The position numbers and the translations under genes were made by a program. A DNA stretch of 64,000 nt from Candidatus Falkowbacteria bacterium (GTDB lineage Bacteria > Patescibacteriota > Patescibacteriia > XYB2-FULL-38-15), in contig JBBIUS010000002.1 in the NCBI GenBank assembly GCA_037440105.1, positions 2,685-66,684 of the forward strand, written 5' to 3'. The notes below the pieces were generated by a model. The model searched no databases and was not told the origin of the DNA. It was given only the letters and a program-made list of their open reading frames with translations. Below, in pieces: positions 40,576 through 45,152 of the stretch (its first letter is position 1; the number at the start of each line of letters is the position of its first letter).

Positions 40576-41742
40576 ATGCCAATAAAAAAAACTAAAGGTG
40601 GGAGAAAGATTCGCGTAGGGATCATATTCGGTGGCCGGTCCGGCGAACACGAGGTTTCTTTGGTTTCGGCAGAATCAGTGATGAGGGCTTTAGATAAGAA
40701 AAAATATCAAGTGATTCCAATAGGGATTACTAAAGCGGGGGAGTGGGCGGTAGATAAATCAAAAATCAAAAATCAAAAATCAAAATTGTTGGAATTGTTC
40801 AAGAAAGAAAAAATTAAAAAAGGATCGTGGCTGCCGCCGGAGATTTTGACAAAAGTTGATGTTGTGTTTCCGGTCTTGCACGGAACCTACGGCGAGGATG
40901 GGACAATTCAAGGGCTGTTTGAAATGATTAACGTTCCATATGTTGGAGCCGGTGTTTTGGGTTCAGCCGTTGGAATGGACAAGGTGGTGCAAAAACAGTT
41001 GTGCGAGCAAGCCAGATTGCCGGTTGTAAAATATGTTTGGTTCTATAGCAATGTTTTGCGACAACTGAAAGGTGTTCGTAAAACATTGCGCGATAAAGCG
41101 ACGCTCGCAAAATGTAGCCTTATCGATATTGTGCGACACATAGAAAAGGCGCTGGGTTATCCGTGTTTTATAAAACCGGCGAATTTAGGATCCAGTGTAG
41201 GTATCTCTAGAGCTAAAAACAGGCGAGAATTGATTGCAGGCATTAATTTAGCCGCAAAATACGATCGAAAAATTTTAGTTGAAAAAATTTGTCCAAATGT
41301 GCGGGAAATTGAATGCAGTGTTTTAGGTAATGATAAACCTATCGCGTCTCTGCCGGGCGAAGTAGTTCCATCTGGGGAATTCTATGATTATGACGCAAAA
41401 TATGTCGACGGGAAATCAAAAACTATAATTCCGGCGAAACTGCCGTCGAAATTAGTACGGCGAGTCCAAAATCTGGCCTGTTGCGTCTTTCAAATCACGG
41501 ATTGCGCCGGTATGGCCCGCGTGGATTTTTTACTGGATAATAAGCGGGGAAAAGTATACATCAACGAAATAAATACAATTCCAGGCTTCACTTCAATTTC
41601 AATGTATCCAAAACTCTGGCAGGCCTCGGGACTATCGTACAGCGATCTGCTCGACATCCTTATTAATCTTGCCATTCAAAGATTTAAAGAAAAACAAAAA
41701 CTTTTGATTTCTTACAAGCCCAAGAAAAAGTGGTATAGATAA
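40576..41742 (+). CDS. ddl: D-alanine--D-alanine ligase
   Basis: 388 aa. [36 protein letters not shown] and an ATP-grasp C-domain (ARVDFLLD...[12 protein letters not shown]). In-frame (AAATCAA)x4 at 40756-40783. Confidence 0.9.
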
Positions 41743-41787: not shown

Positions 41788-42660
41788 ATGGCTGGACGTC
41801 GATTCTTAGATTTTCATAAAAAAAATTATCGCAACCCATTTTTTAGAAGGTCAAAACGTGGGTTTCATTTTTTTAAAAAAAGCCGAAAAGAGAAATTATA
41901 TTTATGGCGAAGAAGAGTTGTCTTGTTTTTTATTTTGATAACTGCCGTTGGATGGGTTTGGCTCTTTTTTTATTCTCCTTATTTTAAAATTGAAAAAATA
42001 GAAATTTTAGGATTGGAGCAAATAGATAAAAATGAAATAAAAGCAATCGTTGATTCTCAACTTTTTAATCGGCGTTTTTTAATTTTCCGGCAAAGCAATA
42101 TTTTTATATTTGATGAGAAATCTCTTTCAAAAAATATAAATGCTAAGTATTTTCTTAACAATTTAGCTATTAACAAAGATTTACCATCTACTTTAATAAT
42201 TCAAATAAAAGAAAAAACTTCAAAATTGATTTGGGTAACCAATAATAAAAATTATTATCTTGATTTGAGCGGAACCGTTATTGGCGAGGTAGCTGCGTTA
42301 CCAACCGCAGAAACAGAAGGGGTGTCTTCGGCAAAAAATCTGCCAATAATCTATGATGAGAGTAATAAAGAAGTAAATATTGGAGAAAAAGTTTTGGAAG
42401 AAAGCCGTGTTTTGGCAGTCATTGAATTAACTGAAAGAATTTTACAATTTACGGGAGTAGAAATTGATTTTTATAAATTGATAAATGGAATCGAATTGAG
42501 AGCGATTACAAAAGAAGGCTGGTATATTTTATTTGCTGATGATAACATCGAAAATCAATTAAAGAAGTTGGATTTGATTTTAAAAGAAAAAATTAAAGAG
42601 AAACGAAAAAATTTAGAATATATTGATTTGAGATTTGAAGACAGGGTTTATTATAAATAA
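41788..42660 (+). CDS. ftsQ: FtsQ-type cell-division protein (TM + POTRA)
   Basis: 290 aa. Basic N-terminus, one TM (VVLFFILITAVGWVWLFF) and a POTRA-like FKIEKIEILGLEQIDKNEIKAIV. It follows ddl. Confidence 0.7.
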   Translation: MAGRRFLDFHKKNYRNPFFRRSKRGFHFFKKSRKEKLYLWRRRVVLFFILITAVGWVWLFFYSPYFKIEKIEILGLEQIDKNEIKAIVDSQLFNRRFLIFRQSNIFIFDEKSLSKNINAKYFLNNLAINKDLPSTLIIQIKEKTSKLIWVTNNKNYYLDLSGTVIGEVAALPTAETEGVSSAKNLPIIYDESNKEVNIGEKVLEESRVLAVIELTERILQFTGVEIDFYKLINGIELRAITKEGWYILFADDNIENQLKKLDLILKEKIKEKRKNLEYIDLRFEDRVYYK

Positions 42661-42754
42661 TTTTTTCAATTGTTAACATTTTTTAAGAATTTGTCCTAGA
42701 TTTAAAACTGATAGGCTTAATTGTGTATTGGCGCATATTCTCATAAACTTCAAA

Positions 42755-42805
42755 GCAGATTTTGCGAACCTGATTGTGAAGCCTAAACAGGGTCGTAAAA
42801 TCTGC
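42755..42805 (+). other. 13-bp hairpin with a plus-strand-only G:U pair (ftsQ 3' region)
   Basis: GCAGATTTTGCGA (42755-67) pairs with TCGTAAAATCTGC (42793-805). The single non-Watson-Crick position is G:U on the + strand and A:C on the - strand. Confidence 0.5.
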
Positions 42806-42910
42806 GTAATCTTATGTAGCTCAGTTGTATTGAGTCGCATAAGATATATTGTCCGACGCAATGCATAACACTTTTTATATTCTCCCCTAATGACCAGTGC
42901 TTTTATTTTA

Positions 42911-42939
42911 GGTAAAAACAAAATGCTCCCATGGGAGCA
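42911..42939 (-). terminator. Palindromic terminator (TGCTCCC-at-GGGAGCA) with U-run on the minus strand
   Basis: Palindrome at 42924-42939. On the minus strand it is followed by UUUUGUUUUUACC. On the plus strand only CTTTGTT follows. Confidence 0.55.
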
Positions 42940-42996
42940 CTTTGTTAGCAAATATTAAATATTTTGATTATTTTTGGCATAAGAATTTAAAAGGCA

Positions 42997-43042
42997 AATA
43001 AAAACCGACCCAAAGATGTTTAAAATTTAATCCTTGGATCGG
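42997..43042 (-). terminator. Rho-independent terminator of the structured-RNA locus
   Basis: Minus-strand CCGAUCCAAGG (43042-43032) pairs with CUUUGGGUCGG (43015-43005). The stem is 11 bp including two G:U pairs that would be A:C on the plus strand. UUUUUAUUU follows. Confidence 0.7.
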
Positions 43043-43176
43043 GAGGCTCTGCTTCCTCAGGCTCACCACAACCCAGGTGACTGGTTTGGGATTACCAGAA
43101 TGCGCTCGTATGTGCCTAGCAGTTGTAGGTTACTTACAAGAAAATTTCCTCCTTTCCGGTCATCCCCCTGCCATCC

Positions 43177-43389
43177 TCAAACGATATCCAGTTCTTCGAA
43201 GCGTTGCTTATCAATCATAGCGATCAAGGCATCTTCGACGTAGTTCCCTCGCCGACTCCATTCTCGCGGTGCAGCTTCGACCTCGTCGTAGTTGTGGGTT
43301 CTTCCGGCGACCCTTCTTTCCTCTTCCATCTCTTCGGGAAAATTTTCACGGGGATACAGCCCATAAGCCATCATTTTGAATGTTATCAT
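43177..43389 (-). CDS. Small protein (70 aa) of unknown function inside the structured transcript
   Basis: AAGGAGGG lies 3 nt upstream of the ATG. The sequence MITFKMMAYGLYPRENFPEEMEEERRVAGRTHNYDEVEAAPREWSRRGNYVEDALIAMIDKQRFEELDIV is R/E/G/A-rich, unlike the K/I/N-rich neighbours. Coding status is unproven. Confidence 0.45.
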   Translation of the reverse strand: MITFKMMAYGLYPRENFPEEMEEERRVAGRTHNYDEVEAAPREWSRRGNYVEDALIAMIDKQRFEELDIV

Positions 43390-43716
43390 TTTCCCTCCTT
43401 CTATATTTTAAGGTTAAGGGTAAGGGCAAAGGAATCTGGAGGTGAATTCTGTTCCGATAAAATCGGAACAGTTTGATGTTTCGGAAAGTTTAAACTCAGT
43501 CGAAACCGTGTTTAAACTTTGCCTCACACCGATCCGGCGGGTTTTCCAAGAAGGATATGCCGCAGGACTTCCTCCCCCAAGTTCCTCTGCCCTATCAATA
43601 TTTAGTATTGATTTAAACAGCGCAATTTTTCTTTAAGCTGGTTTGAATAATTTTTAAAAGATCTTTTTTATTTTTTTCAGACACCCAAGCACGGGGTTTT
43701 TAATTTTTAACACTTT

Positions 43717-43745
43717 ACTATAACATACATTTAAAATTTTGTCAA
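43717..43745 (-). promoter_or_regulatory. Consensus promoter TTGACA-17-TATAGT on the minus strand
   Basis: The reverse complement of 43740-43745 is TTGACA and of 43717-43722 is TATAGT, with a 17-nt spacer. Confidence 0.6.
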
Positions 43746-43854
43746 GACCCTTTGACAAAATATAGTTAAAATTCTTATTTTTTGGCTAATTTAAGCCAAA
43801 ATAAAGTGTTATAATAAATACAATTTTAAGTGAACATTACAAATAAGATGCAAA

Positions 43855-43886
43855 TAATAAAACCGCCCTTTTGGGCGGTTTTATTT
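43855..43886. terminator. Bidirectional terminator
   Basis: AACCGCCC-tttt-GGGCGGTT (43861-43880) with A/T runs on both sides. It ends the gltX-M23 operon on the minus strand. Confidence 0.75.
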
Positions 43887-43904
43887 AATGTTGTTTTTAA
43901 TTTT

Positions 43905-45152
43905 TTATGGCAAGTAGTCCAATGGATTTACTGGAATTCCATTTAAGCGTACTTCAAAATGCAAATGGGGCCCGGTAGATAATCTTCCAGCCCCAGGAGT
44001 ACCAGGCATGCCGCCTGAAAGGCCTATTGTTTGTCCTCTTATGACATAGGTGTCTTCTTGAACTAATATTTTTGACACATGACCATAAACAGTTGAAATT
44101 CCACTATTATGAATAATCATAATATAACTATAACCCATACCTGCATCTTTAGCTCGGGCAACATAACCAGGGGCTGAAGCAAGAATAGGTGTGCCTTGTG
44201 GTGCCCGAATATCAATAGCCGGATGTTCAAAAATATACCTAAAAGGATAATCAGGGTCGTGGAAATATGCGGTTATTCCTCGCGAAGGGTCAACTGGCCA
44301 AGATAAAATTACGTTTCCGCTTATCCCTTCAAAGAAAGCCCTATCGCTTTCTGCTAATTTTTCTCTAATTTTTCTTTCCAAATAAGCAATTTCAGAATCA
44401 ATTTTTTCTTGCTCGTAGCGTAACTCAATAAGTAGATTTTGAAATTCTTTTTCAGAAGAAAGAGTTTGTTCTAAAAGAGCTGCTTTCGCGACCATCTTTT
44501 CTTCCAAAGAACTTTTTTCTTGTTCTAATTCTTTTTTAGCATTTTCTTCTTCTTGTTTTTTAGCCTCTTTTTTAATTTTCTTTTCATTTAACTCTGCTTT
44601 TAATTCTTTGACTTGATTTAAAAGTGATTGAAGTTCTATTTGCAGTTCTTCGAGATATTGGATTTGATCAAAAAATTCTGAAAAGGAATTATTTAAAATT
44701 AAAATTTCAAGGTAATTTTTTTGACTGCTTCGATAAAGAATGCTTAAAAGGTCTGCCAATTTTGTTTTGTAATCTGCGATTTTATCTTCTTTTTCTTTAA
44801 TTTGAAATTCTAAGGATTTAATTTCCAAACCTATCTGTTCTATTCTTTTTTCCGTTGCTTCAATATCAAGACCAATTTTTACTATTTGATTGTCTAAAAT
44901 AGCTATTTGATTACCTAGGCTTAAAGCTTCTAATTTTTTTTGTTCAATATTTTTTTTGTAGACTTCAGCTTTTTTTTGCAAATTTTCGATCTCTTTCTTT
45001 TTCAAATCTATCTGCTTATCTAGGTCTGAAATCTCATTAACGACATCTCCTGATTCAACAGCTTTAATTTTTTTGGAATTTTGAAAAGTAAAAGAAGCAA
45101 TTAAAAAGATTGCTAAAAATATAATCAATATCTTCTTTCTTCCTTTTATCAT
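43905..45152 (-). CDS. M23-family metallopeptidase with N-terminal coiled coil (EnvC-like)
   Basis: 415 aa. Signal/TM, a long coiled coil and a C-terminal LytM domain with HPAIDI and GPHLHFEVR. Confidence 0.85.
   Translation of the reverse strand: MIKGRKKILIIFLAIFLIASFTFQNSKKIKAVESGDVVNEISDLDKQIDLKKKEIENLQKKAEVYKKNIEQKKLEALSLGNQIAILDNQIVKIGLDIEATEKRIEQIGLEIKSLEFQIKEKEDKIADYKTKLADLLSILYRSSQKNYLEILILNNSFSEFFDQIQYLEELQIELQSLLNQVKELKAELNEKKIKKEAKKQEEENAKKELEQEKSSLEEKMVAKAALLEQTLSSEKEFQNLLIELRYEQEKIDSEIAYLERKIREKLAESDRAFFEGISGNVILSWPVDPSRGITAYFHDPDYPFRYIFEHPAIDIRAPQGTPILASAPGYVARAKDAGMGYSYIMIIHNSGISTVYGHVSKILVQEDTYVIRGQTIGLSGGMPGTPGAGRLSTGPHLHFEVRLNGIPVNPLDYLP

Follow-up and report, generated by a model that had tools for sequence, protein, structure and literature searches.

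The large ornate noncoding RNAs (ncRNAs) of bacteria, including OLE, GOLLD, ROOL, HEARO and raiA, were found by the signature of a GC-rich structured island with its own promoter and terminator. Stabilisers of the 5' part of mRNA, either Shine-Dalgarno (SD)-like or structural, are represented by the STAB-SD element of the Bacillus thuringiensis cryIIIA mRNA and by 5' stem-loops, while in bacterial RNase P RNA the P4 helix pairs CR-I (GAGGAAAGUCC) with CR-V (ACAGAA..GGCUUA). Here we analyse a locus that resembles each of these in part, located on the minus strand of a 64,000-nucleotide (nt) stretch of a Candidatus Falkowbacteria genome (assembly GCA_037440105.1, contig JBBIUS010000002.1; hereafter the window). 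An earlier note, made from the letters of the window, had proposed a large ornate RNA, a riboregulated mini-gene, or an RNA-centred mobile or foreign element of unknown class. On balance we favour the reading that the locus is a self-contained small-protein gene with a structured leader and a 3' module, and that the leader acts in cis. One independent minus-strand unit, with a predicted length of about 0.7 kb, would encode an acidic protein of 70 residues; its transcription would start from a near-consensus sigma-70 promoter, predicted to be regulator-controlled; a long leader with a 171-nt four-way junction would open the mRNA, and a two-hairpin module with an intrinsic terminator would close it.

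The open reading frame (ORF) of the locus is present at 43177..43389 (minus strand), as the earlier note had it, and, judging from its homologues and its codon pattern, is a true protein-coding gene for a new family of small acidic proteins. A word-indexed search of 5.8 billion protein clusters returned the ORF itself as the sole match. Two homologues emerged when 1.84 billion cluster representatives were scanned exhaustively with HMMER: P0242, which has 71 amino acids (aa) and is 66% identical along its whole length, and P0244, which has 127 aa. The gene for P0242 is on L086, a Logan contig of 1003 nt (ERR14790953), and that for P0244 on L087, a contig of 6031 nt (ERR11489092). Another candidate, P0243 (326 aa), consists of six near-identical tandem repeats of 57 aa (171 bp) with weak likeness to ORF residues 11-52, and was discarded as most likely a spurious translated satellite repeat. 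The alignment of the three proteins has 30 invariant columns, with the conserved blocks MIT..MA.G..(R/H)ENFP..M.EE.R(L/V), APR and GN(Y/W)VEDA(L/M)I, the N-terminal MIT being invariant; P0244 carries two insertions, across which the frame stays open and the sequence is aligned on both sides. Against the P0242 orthologue, the differences by codon position are 17/16/37, with 22 synonymous codon changes, and the proportions of synonymous (pS) and nonsynonymous (pN) differences are 0.79 (saturated) and 0.22, respectively. The protein motifs are held while the GC content of the ORF ranges from 0.48 to 0.68 and that of third codon positions (GC3) from 0.52 to 0.95 among the three loci. In the window, L086 and L087, an AGGAGG SD sequence is located 4-6 nt before the first AUG, and the RNA of the window ORF folds no better than its shuffles (z +0.95). 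The product is hydrophilic, without a hydrophobic stretch, and contains the peptide MITFKMMAYGLYPR... No significant match of the family was found in Pfam, PHROGs, NCBIfam, PADLOC or PDB sequences; with respect to known phage and anti-phage defence families, none of the three members matched PHROGs, and the single PADLOC match, to PDC-M10A for one member only, was marginal (E 0.0084, 13.7 bits).

Upstream of the ORF, a structured RNA domain of 171 nt (43423..43593, minus strand) is predicted as a four-way junction from its folding and from pairwise covariation with L086. The core of its closing helix (12+7+3 bp) is the 9-bp long-range helix GGGCAGAGG/CCUUUGCCC (43592-84/43432-24) that the earlier note had drawn, also present in the minimum free energy (MFE) fold, and within the molecule GGAGG pairs with CCUCC to form the middle part of the same helix. 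The three arms are GUCC-GCGG...CCGC-GGAU (arm 1), GGUGU...AAAGUUUAAAC...GUUUAAACUUU...ACAUC (arm 2) and UGUUCCGAU-UUU-AUCGGAACA (arm 3); the two hairpins predicted earlier, of 10 bp (43449-71) and 11 bp (43485-95/43510-20), appear in both the MFE and the consensus structure. The 191-nt stretch holding the domain has an MFE of -83.8 kcal/mol (z -8.1 against chance), and the orthologous domain of L086 alone adopts the same shape (z -10.05). The RNAalifold consensus of the two sequences includes 63 pairs, of which 63 are kept and none is broken. Six of these pairs are compensatory, with both sides changed and the pairing kept; five helices have one each, and the long arm has two. A further 5-6 pairs are altered on one side only, between G:U and Watson-Crick. 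When the 3' partners were slid by 1-3 columns as a control, pairing fell to 32-58%, with 0-1 compensatory pairs. A covariance model built from the two sequences reached 204-207 bits for the sense and 48-62 bits for the antisense strand, and detected no further copy of the domain in the 64-kb window and about 1.08 Mb of retrieved loci. The fold of the whole transcript is also stronger on the minus strand (z -4.6) than on the plus strand (z -2.9).

In the MAFFT alignment with L086, the mean column identity of the 171-nt domain is 90%, and the promoter region, this domain and parts of the 3' untranslated region (UTR) together align at 85-90%. Because synonymous sites are saturated between the window and L086, the non-coding stretches that still align well are under selection; by this comparison, the 171-nt domain is shown to be under much stronger selection than the coding sequence. 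Its flanks are different. The first part of the 5' UTR (43594..43710, minus strand; start of transcription at about 43710, from the position of the -10 box) is AU-rich (GC 0.25) and poorly conserved except for AAACCCGUGCUUG, differing from L086 by a 38-nt indel and low identity. Likewise, the linker leading to the ribosome-binding site (43390..43422, minus strand), pyrimidine- and AU-rich and followed by the SD AAGGAGGG (43400-43393), of which the GGAGG lies 4 nt before the AUG, is not conserved and barely aligns. No terminator or promoter was detected between the 5' domain and the ORF, either in the sequence or by the promoter scan.

How such a leader might act was assessed from the accessibility of its motifs. 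The SD has an unpaired probability of 0.11 (window) and 0.40 (L086), the pairing being due to short, weak local contacts that differ between the two; for the upstream GGAGG of the closing helix it is 0.35 and 0.001, respectively. The CACCUCC sequence (43444-38), proposed in the earlier note as an anti-SD that sequesters the SD, is not supported in this role, as its CCUCC is the 3' strand of the closing helix, with an unpaired probability of 0.001-0.002 in both orthologues. The GUUUCG/CGAAAC pseudoknot suggested for the 11-bp hairpin (43478-83/43501-06) is formable in the window and lost in L086 (GCUGCG/CAAAAC). A simple SD-masking switch is unlikely as the function of the leader. Since the CCUCC is locked, the SD pairings differ, the linker is not conserved and the closing helix is 22 bp long, a recognition or stability platform is favoured.

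On the 3' side of the ORF, the two-hairpin module (43042..43083, minus strand) is found in the same register at all three loci (window, L086 and L087). Hairpin A has the form UCACC-(UGGG plus a variable loop)-GGUGA, followed by GCC, and hairpin B is GAGG-AAGCAGAG-CCUC, of which the form common to the three loci is GRGG/CCYC with the loop AAGCAGRG; the pattern of the whole module is GUCACCUGGG-(4, 10 or 5 nt)-GGUGAGCC-(3-4 nt)-GGAAGCAGRGCC, the first loop being 4, 10 and 5 nt in the window, L086 and L087, respectively. The consensus includes 13 pairs, two of them compensatory, and one further hairpin, variable in sequence, comes after it. The module is present as a single copy in the window, and a metagenome scan with its pattern gave 8 loci, all chance matches within GC-rich coding DNA with unrelated flanks. 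In L087, the same module lies about 630 nt downstream of the ORF, past two more small ORFs, and the ORF itself is in an island of 2.3 kb with 50-69% GC, bordered by holB/frr-type genes whose GC is about 45%; the 3' UTR of the window showed no trace of the other small ORFs in L087. The co-occurrence of ORF and 3' module in unrelated contexts indicates that the two are linked, either functionally or as a unit of inheritance. The orphan small ORFs of the L087 island (L087:3300-5700) number at least five; every one has a strong SD, GGCCGA..N..UCGGCC hairpins separate them, and none matched Pfam or PADLOC.

The proximal 3' UTR (43083..43176, minus strand), between the ORF and the module, contains a second SD-like sequence, AAGGAGGAAA, of which the GGAGG (43152-43148) pairs with CCUCC (43046-43042), closing a 3' domain with a partly conserved interior. 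In the consensus fold with L086, GGAGG pairs with CCUCC/CCUUC and UUUCUU with GAGGAA; the folding of this segment gives z -2.2 in the window and -3.4 in L086, which is without 20 nt of the window sequence. The transcript would end at an intrinsic terminator (42997..43042, minus strand) with a 12-nt loop and the tail UUUUUAUUU. The stem with its U-run and G:U pairs, described in the earlier note as 11 bp, is present in the MFE folds and measures 13 bp (43042-43005); as was claimed, both of its non-canonical pairs are G:U on the minus strand and A:C on the plus strand. L086 does not keep this terminator sequence and has a different AU-rich hairpin at this point. Counting all GGAGG/CCUCC motifs, the 560-nt core holds 5 against 1.1 expected (P about 0.005), in agreement with the earlier note that had pointed to extra copies.

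The promoter predicted in the earlier note, TTGACA-17-TATAGT, was found by the promoter scan with 11/12 consensus matches (promoter with operator-like inverted repeat, 43717..43758, minus strand). It consists of a -35 box TTGACA (43745-43740), a 17-nt spacer and a -10 box TATAGT (43722-43717) with TG in front. An inverted repeat, TTGTCAA-AGGGTC-TTGACAA (43758-43739), overlaps the -35 box; the 26-mer of this promoter repeat is unique in the window (0 expected by chance), and its GTCAAAGNNTCTTGACAA is conserved in L086 and in two further contigs, L089 and L090. As the -35 box lies inside a conserved inverted repeat, the promoter is probably controlled by a dimeric DNA-binding regulator. About 35 nt upstream of the -35 box, a non-coding palindrome, TTGGCTTAAATTAGCCAA (43782..43799, minus strand), is present once in the window and also in L086 and L088, and is unchanged in the alignment of window and L086 despite the saturated synonymous sites; it is possibly a regulator binding site, and TTGTCAAAGGGTCTTGACAA and TTGGCTTAAATTAGCCAA are both possible binding sequences of a transcriptional regulator. 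On the antisense strand, the only promoter-like sites are due to the promoter palindrome and face away from the locus. L086 and the window share one order of elements: first the M23 peptidase gene end and a terminator, next the palindrome TTGGCTAAAATTAGCCAA and the promoter with the inverted repeat GTCAAAGAGTCTTGACAA, and then leader, ORF, 3' region and sequence resembling the ftsQ-proximal spacer. In L088, the closest relative by its M23 gene (84%), the sequence is different for 640 nt after this gene, and three contigs of other relatives break off, two of them (L089:4801-4818, L090:4447-4464) exactly within the conserved promoter repeat and one (L091:3385) in the upstream palindrome; two of these three, from different runs, stop at the same base. 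These contig ends suggest that the sequence after the promoter varies within populations, at the level of strains, or that a repeat lies directly downstream.

The locus stands in a 1.24-kb gap between the end of ftsQ (42660) and the end of the M23 gene (43905). Its plus-strand neighbours are, in order, lysS, serS, alr, ddl and ftsQ; LigT, a WecG-type glycosyltransferase, gltX and the M23 peptidase, encoded on the minus strand, converge on ftsQ. An independent Logan assembly (L001, run SRR11582170) gives an identical sequence over the displayed alignment, so the region is not an assembly artefact. The window is AT-rich (GC 0.357), and its proteins are closest to metagenome bins of Patescibacteria, the candidate phyla radiation (CPR), by the source names of the matches. 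In agreement with the earlier note, the segment is GC-richer than the genome: GC is 0.48 for the ORF, 0.48 for the 5' domain and 0.52 for the 3' UTR, against 0.365 +/- 0.033 for 29 genes. The ORF GC3 of 0.52 is about 4.5 standard deviations above the host mean (0.31 +/- 0.047), and the values in the three loci are 0.52, 0.64 and 0.95. Upstream of the start codon, 4 of the 29 host genes carry GGAG, GAGG or AGGA within 20 nt, from which it follows that the genome uses SD sequences little, whereas the SD of the small ORF is perfect.

The expectation of ftsA/ftsZ after ftsQ, from which the earlier note had started, is not in agreement with the relatives of the window, which never have these genes there. 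Those with FtsQ at 64-73% identity carry genes for DUF362 and DUF488 after ftsQ, and in those with 66-68% M23 identity ftsQ faces the M23 gene, as in the window. DUF362 and/or DUF488 follow ftsQ in L082-L084 and L100 and both are missing from the window; from this gene order, the window lineage has undergone a rearrangement or deletion exactly where the small-protein locus sits. In two more distant relatives, the gap between M23 and ftsQ contains another RNA: L101:2615-2975 and L100:4900-5250 share a GC-rich structured region of about 340 nt (nhmmer E about 1e-8), with 15 compensatory pairs whichever strand is folded, z of -3.9 to -6.5 and no conserved ORF. The strong promoters TTGACA-16-TAAAAT and TTGACT-16-TAAAAT, a lower consensus energy and a long helix with a U-run favour the ftsQ strand for this RNA, a terminator-like hairpin also fitting the other strand; it is probably on the strand opposite to that of the window RNA. 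The covariance model of the window 5' domain matched L101 at the closing helix only (11.7 bits, interior unaligned), nhmmer detected no similarity between this domain and the L100/L101 RNA, and in a four-way MAFFT alignment of both RNA types only the closing-helix cores are shared (GCARRG / CYYUGC). An AT-rich 'tRNA-Leu' call by ARAGORN in L100 looks like a false positive. The gap between M23 and ftsQ seems to be a home for fast-evolving structured RNAs.

Among the alternatives to a cis-acting leader, a somewhat unlikely one is that the 171-nt domain is a stand-alone ncRNA, trans-acting or protein-scaffolding, which resides in the slot between M23 and ftsQ, and that the ORF cassette landed downstream and is co-transcribed, the role of the domain being unrelated to the ORF. 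This would account for the better conservation of the domain than of the ORF (90% against about 70% nucleotide identity), its lack in the third ORF locus (L087), the different ORF-free RNA in the same slot of L100 and L101, and the alignable closing-helix cores of both RNA types; the AU-rich linkers on both sides would be natural RNase processing sites. However, no terminator follows the domain, the covariance match to L101 is limited to the closing helix with none by nhmmer, the L100/L101 RNA is probably on the opposite strand, and no second copy or target is known. A further reading, in our view unlikely, is that the junction is the first example of a new functional RNA class in Patescibacteria, occupying a conserved RNA slot between M23 and ftsQ in which different fast-evolving RNAs reside by lineage, and that the small protein and the 3' module are a mobile RNA-protein pair plugging into the slot; such a class could be either a ligand- or protein-sensing regulatory domain or the RNA of a trans-acting ribonucleoprotein. 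Distinctly unlikely is a foreign or selfish origin of the whole unit, as a mobile-element remnant, a phage moron or a gene for a small acidic protein of the anti-defence type, whose GC-rich structure would be owed to the donor and not to a function in the host. The GC excess at all three loci including L087, where the flanks are about 45% GC, the strong SD in a genome that seldom uses one, the island of orphan small ORFs in L087, and the patchy distribution (640 nt of different sequence in L088, contigs of other relatives ending at or just before the promoter) are in its favour, and the mobile or foreign element of the earlier note is partly plausible, with the ORF and 3' module in an unrelated GC-rich island. 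On the other side, no integrase, transposase, repeat boundary, mobility gene or tRNA flanks the locus; phage and plasmid searches (tblastn, blastn) gave no match apart from one 49-nt AT-rich chance match; scans of viral contigs with the 3' pattern, the protein alignment and the 5'-domain pattern found nothing; purifying selection acts on both protein and RNA; and promoter and synteny are conserved in L086.

The remaining two alternatives bear on the nature of the transcript itself. It is very improbable that the entire 0.7 kb is one large ornate ncRNA of the OLE, GOLLD or ROOL type with an ORF arising by chance. The region is GC-rich, its full-length fold is better than chance, and the other frames contain several overlapping ORFs (46-90 codons), as GC-rich DNA would give; yet the central 213 nt evolve as codons (excess of third-position changes, pS far above pN), keep their amino acid motifs at 48% as at 68% GC, tolerate insertions without loss of frame, fold no better than shuffles and follow a conserved SD. 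No relevant Rfam match appeared even at E<=10. Codon-like evolution and the unstructured ORF segment effectively refute the large ornate RNA. There is next to no chance that the region is a decayed protein-coding gene such as a remnant of ftsA/ftsZ, suggested by its place at the end of the alr-ddl-ftsQ block: plus-strand ORFs in the gap have no Pfam match at E<=1, GC is above and not below that of genes, the gene order of relatives is against it, and selection acts on the minus strand. This candidate was refuted on these four grounds.

We therefore return to the self-contained small-protein gene with a cis-acting leader, to which the riboregulated mini-gene of the earlier note is the closest of its proposals: a conserved gene behind a covarying leader is what is found, while the mechanism through SD sequestration and pseudoknot is unsupported. 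The leader domain would act in cis as a recognition platform for a factor, either a protein (possibly its own product) or a small ligand, and the bound factor would set the stability or translation of the message. The ORF with its 3' module may be an older, horizontally mobile cassette, placed in this lineage behind a host promoter and leader. Several points weigh against this proposal. The covariation comes from a single pairwise comparison, as the leader domain is present in two sequences only, and the evidence is clean but thin; of 500 shuffled controls, 6 reached the observed covariation value. An expression platform is not evident, the CCUCC being essentially always paired in the closing helix and the linker not conserved, and the 22-bp closing helix is far more stable than the P1 helix of a classical riboswitch. 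The third family member, on L087, lacks the leader domain, which the protein can therefore do without. With about 16 D/E against 10 K/R by hand count, the protein is acidic, a property that disfavours RNA binding, and its AlphaFold model from the three-sequence alignment is unreliable and uninformative (mostly helical; predicted local distance difference test, pLDDT, 53). Comparison of the loci shows that the ORF is real, that the RNA structures are conserved and that the ORF is linked to the 3' module; the cis-regulatory role, the factor and the direction of transfer are what we infer from them. The anatomy is well supported, and the mechanism is offered with modest confidence.

Other features of the gap and of its neighbourhood are as follows. 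After the M23 peptidase gene, a GC-cored 13-bp hairpin between A-runs and T-runs (43856-43885) forms a bidirectional terminator-like site, which shields the small-protein locus from read-through coming from upstream. About 95 nt 3' of ftsQ, within 42755-42805 on the plus strand, a 13-bp hairpin (GCAGAUUUUGCGA / UCGUAAAAUCUGC) with one G:U on that strand is not conserved in L100/L101; it is followed by a tRNA-like-looking GTAGCTCAGTTG stretch, for which the relaxed and intron modes of ARAGORN gave no tRNA. Between ftsQ and the RNA slot, a non-coding element TTATGC(A)TTGCGTCGGACAATATATCTTATGCGAC (42830-42868; L101:3068-3110; L100:5325-5365) is common to three genomes with saturated neutral sites. 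The best relatives of the ddl product (40576-41742) among the matches listed, from 185,579 species-representative genomes, are bins of Bacteroidota, Ignavibacteria and Chlorobi (53-58% identity) and not of Patescibacteria, which hints at acquisition of ddl by horizontal transfer. A scan of genome contigs based on Ddl, with the best matches in Bacteroidota/Ignavibacteria at <=58%, showed the RNA in none of the 80 loci retrieved.

CPR bacteria have tiny genomes, are almost wholly uncultured, and have very few regulatory RNAs described. The locus adds three items outside the curated libraries, namely an RNA domain with clean but thin covariation, a small-protein family and a 3' RNA module co-inherited with this protein in very different genomes, and corrects the first reading in that the region is neither a giant ncRNA nor a replacement of ftsA/ftsZ. 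A leader that proved to sense a ligand or a protein would extend the regulatory RNA classes by one from a little-studied branch of the tree, and a complex between the protein and the 3' module, if one forms, would make a minimal RNA-protein cassette of a new type. Rarity limits the practical weight of the locus: some 15 billion predicted proteins yielded two or three such loci, and the phage, plasmid and viral collections yielded none.

Comparison with known RNA families was made with Rfam 15 (4227 families), which gave 0 matches at the gathering threshold over the whole 64-kb window, so that the locus, as far as this check goes, belongs to no known family. At E<=10 over 42600-44000 only chance terminator- or hairpin-like matches far below threshold appeared, none of them in the 5' domain or the 3' module; L086, L087, L100 and L101 gave nothing relevant at either setting, and the L100/L101 RNA had no Rfam match. 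Three further candidate systems were rejected. As in bacterial RNase P RNA, the locus contains an 11-nt motif, GGAGGAAGUCC, resembling CR-I, within a GC-rich region of fitting length; the GGAGG of this motif, however, pairs locally with a CCUCC 130 nt downstream, with covariation, and a coding gene occupies the middle, while neither ACAGAA/GGCUUA (CR-V) in the locus sequence nor an RNase P match at E<=10 in Rfam was found. A type I toxin-antitoxin system, with a small hydrophobic or membrane toxin and an overlapping antisense RNA, does not fit the hydrophilic, acidic protein, nor the antisense promoter-like sites, which face outwards. The third, tmRNA/tRNA, is rejected as ARAGORN detected no tRNA-like domain; no tRNA or tmRNA gene was found in the 64-kb window, nor over 42500-44000 in the relaxed and intron modes.

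Like the large ornate ncRNAs, the locus is a highly structured, GC-rich island inside an AT-rich genome and has a promoter and a terminator of its own; it differs in that its structure is confined to 171 nt and a 40-nt 3' module, its centre is a translated gene and no Rfam match exists; these RNAs are non-coding throughout, and here the central 213 nt are coding and unstructured. STAB-SD and the 5' stabilisers resemble it in the GGAGG far upstream of the real ribosome-binding site and in a very stable structure within a long leader, features that could protect the mRNA from 5'-end-dependent decay. Unlike in these elements, the upstream GGAGG is paired with an internal CCUCC and not free for 16S rRNA, and the domain begins about 115 nt from the predicted 5' end and not at the end. 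The closest likeness is to cis-acting mRNA leaders, such as riboswitch aptamers and the autoregulatory leaders of ribosomal-protein and other genes: a compact multi-helix junction in the 5' UTR of the same transcript, with conserved junction and loop nucleotides and compensatory changes, more conserved than the coding region. On the aptamer side of the riboswitch, a covarying 5' UTR fold is found (63/63 pairs, 6 compensatory, two sequences); on the side of the expression platform, no conserved alternative, mutually exclusive pairing with terminator or SD is found. The domain differs further in its place outside all 4227 Rfam families with two examples known, in its very stable 22-bp closing helix, and in the orphan small protein downstream, hence no metabolic hint to a ligand. 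The RNA and protein pair is new at the level of family, while its kind, an mRNA with structured UTRs, is a familiar one.

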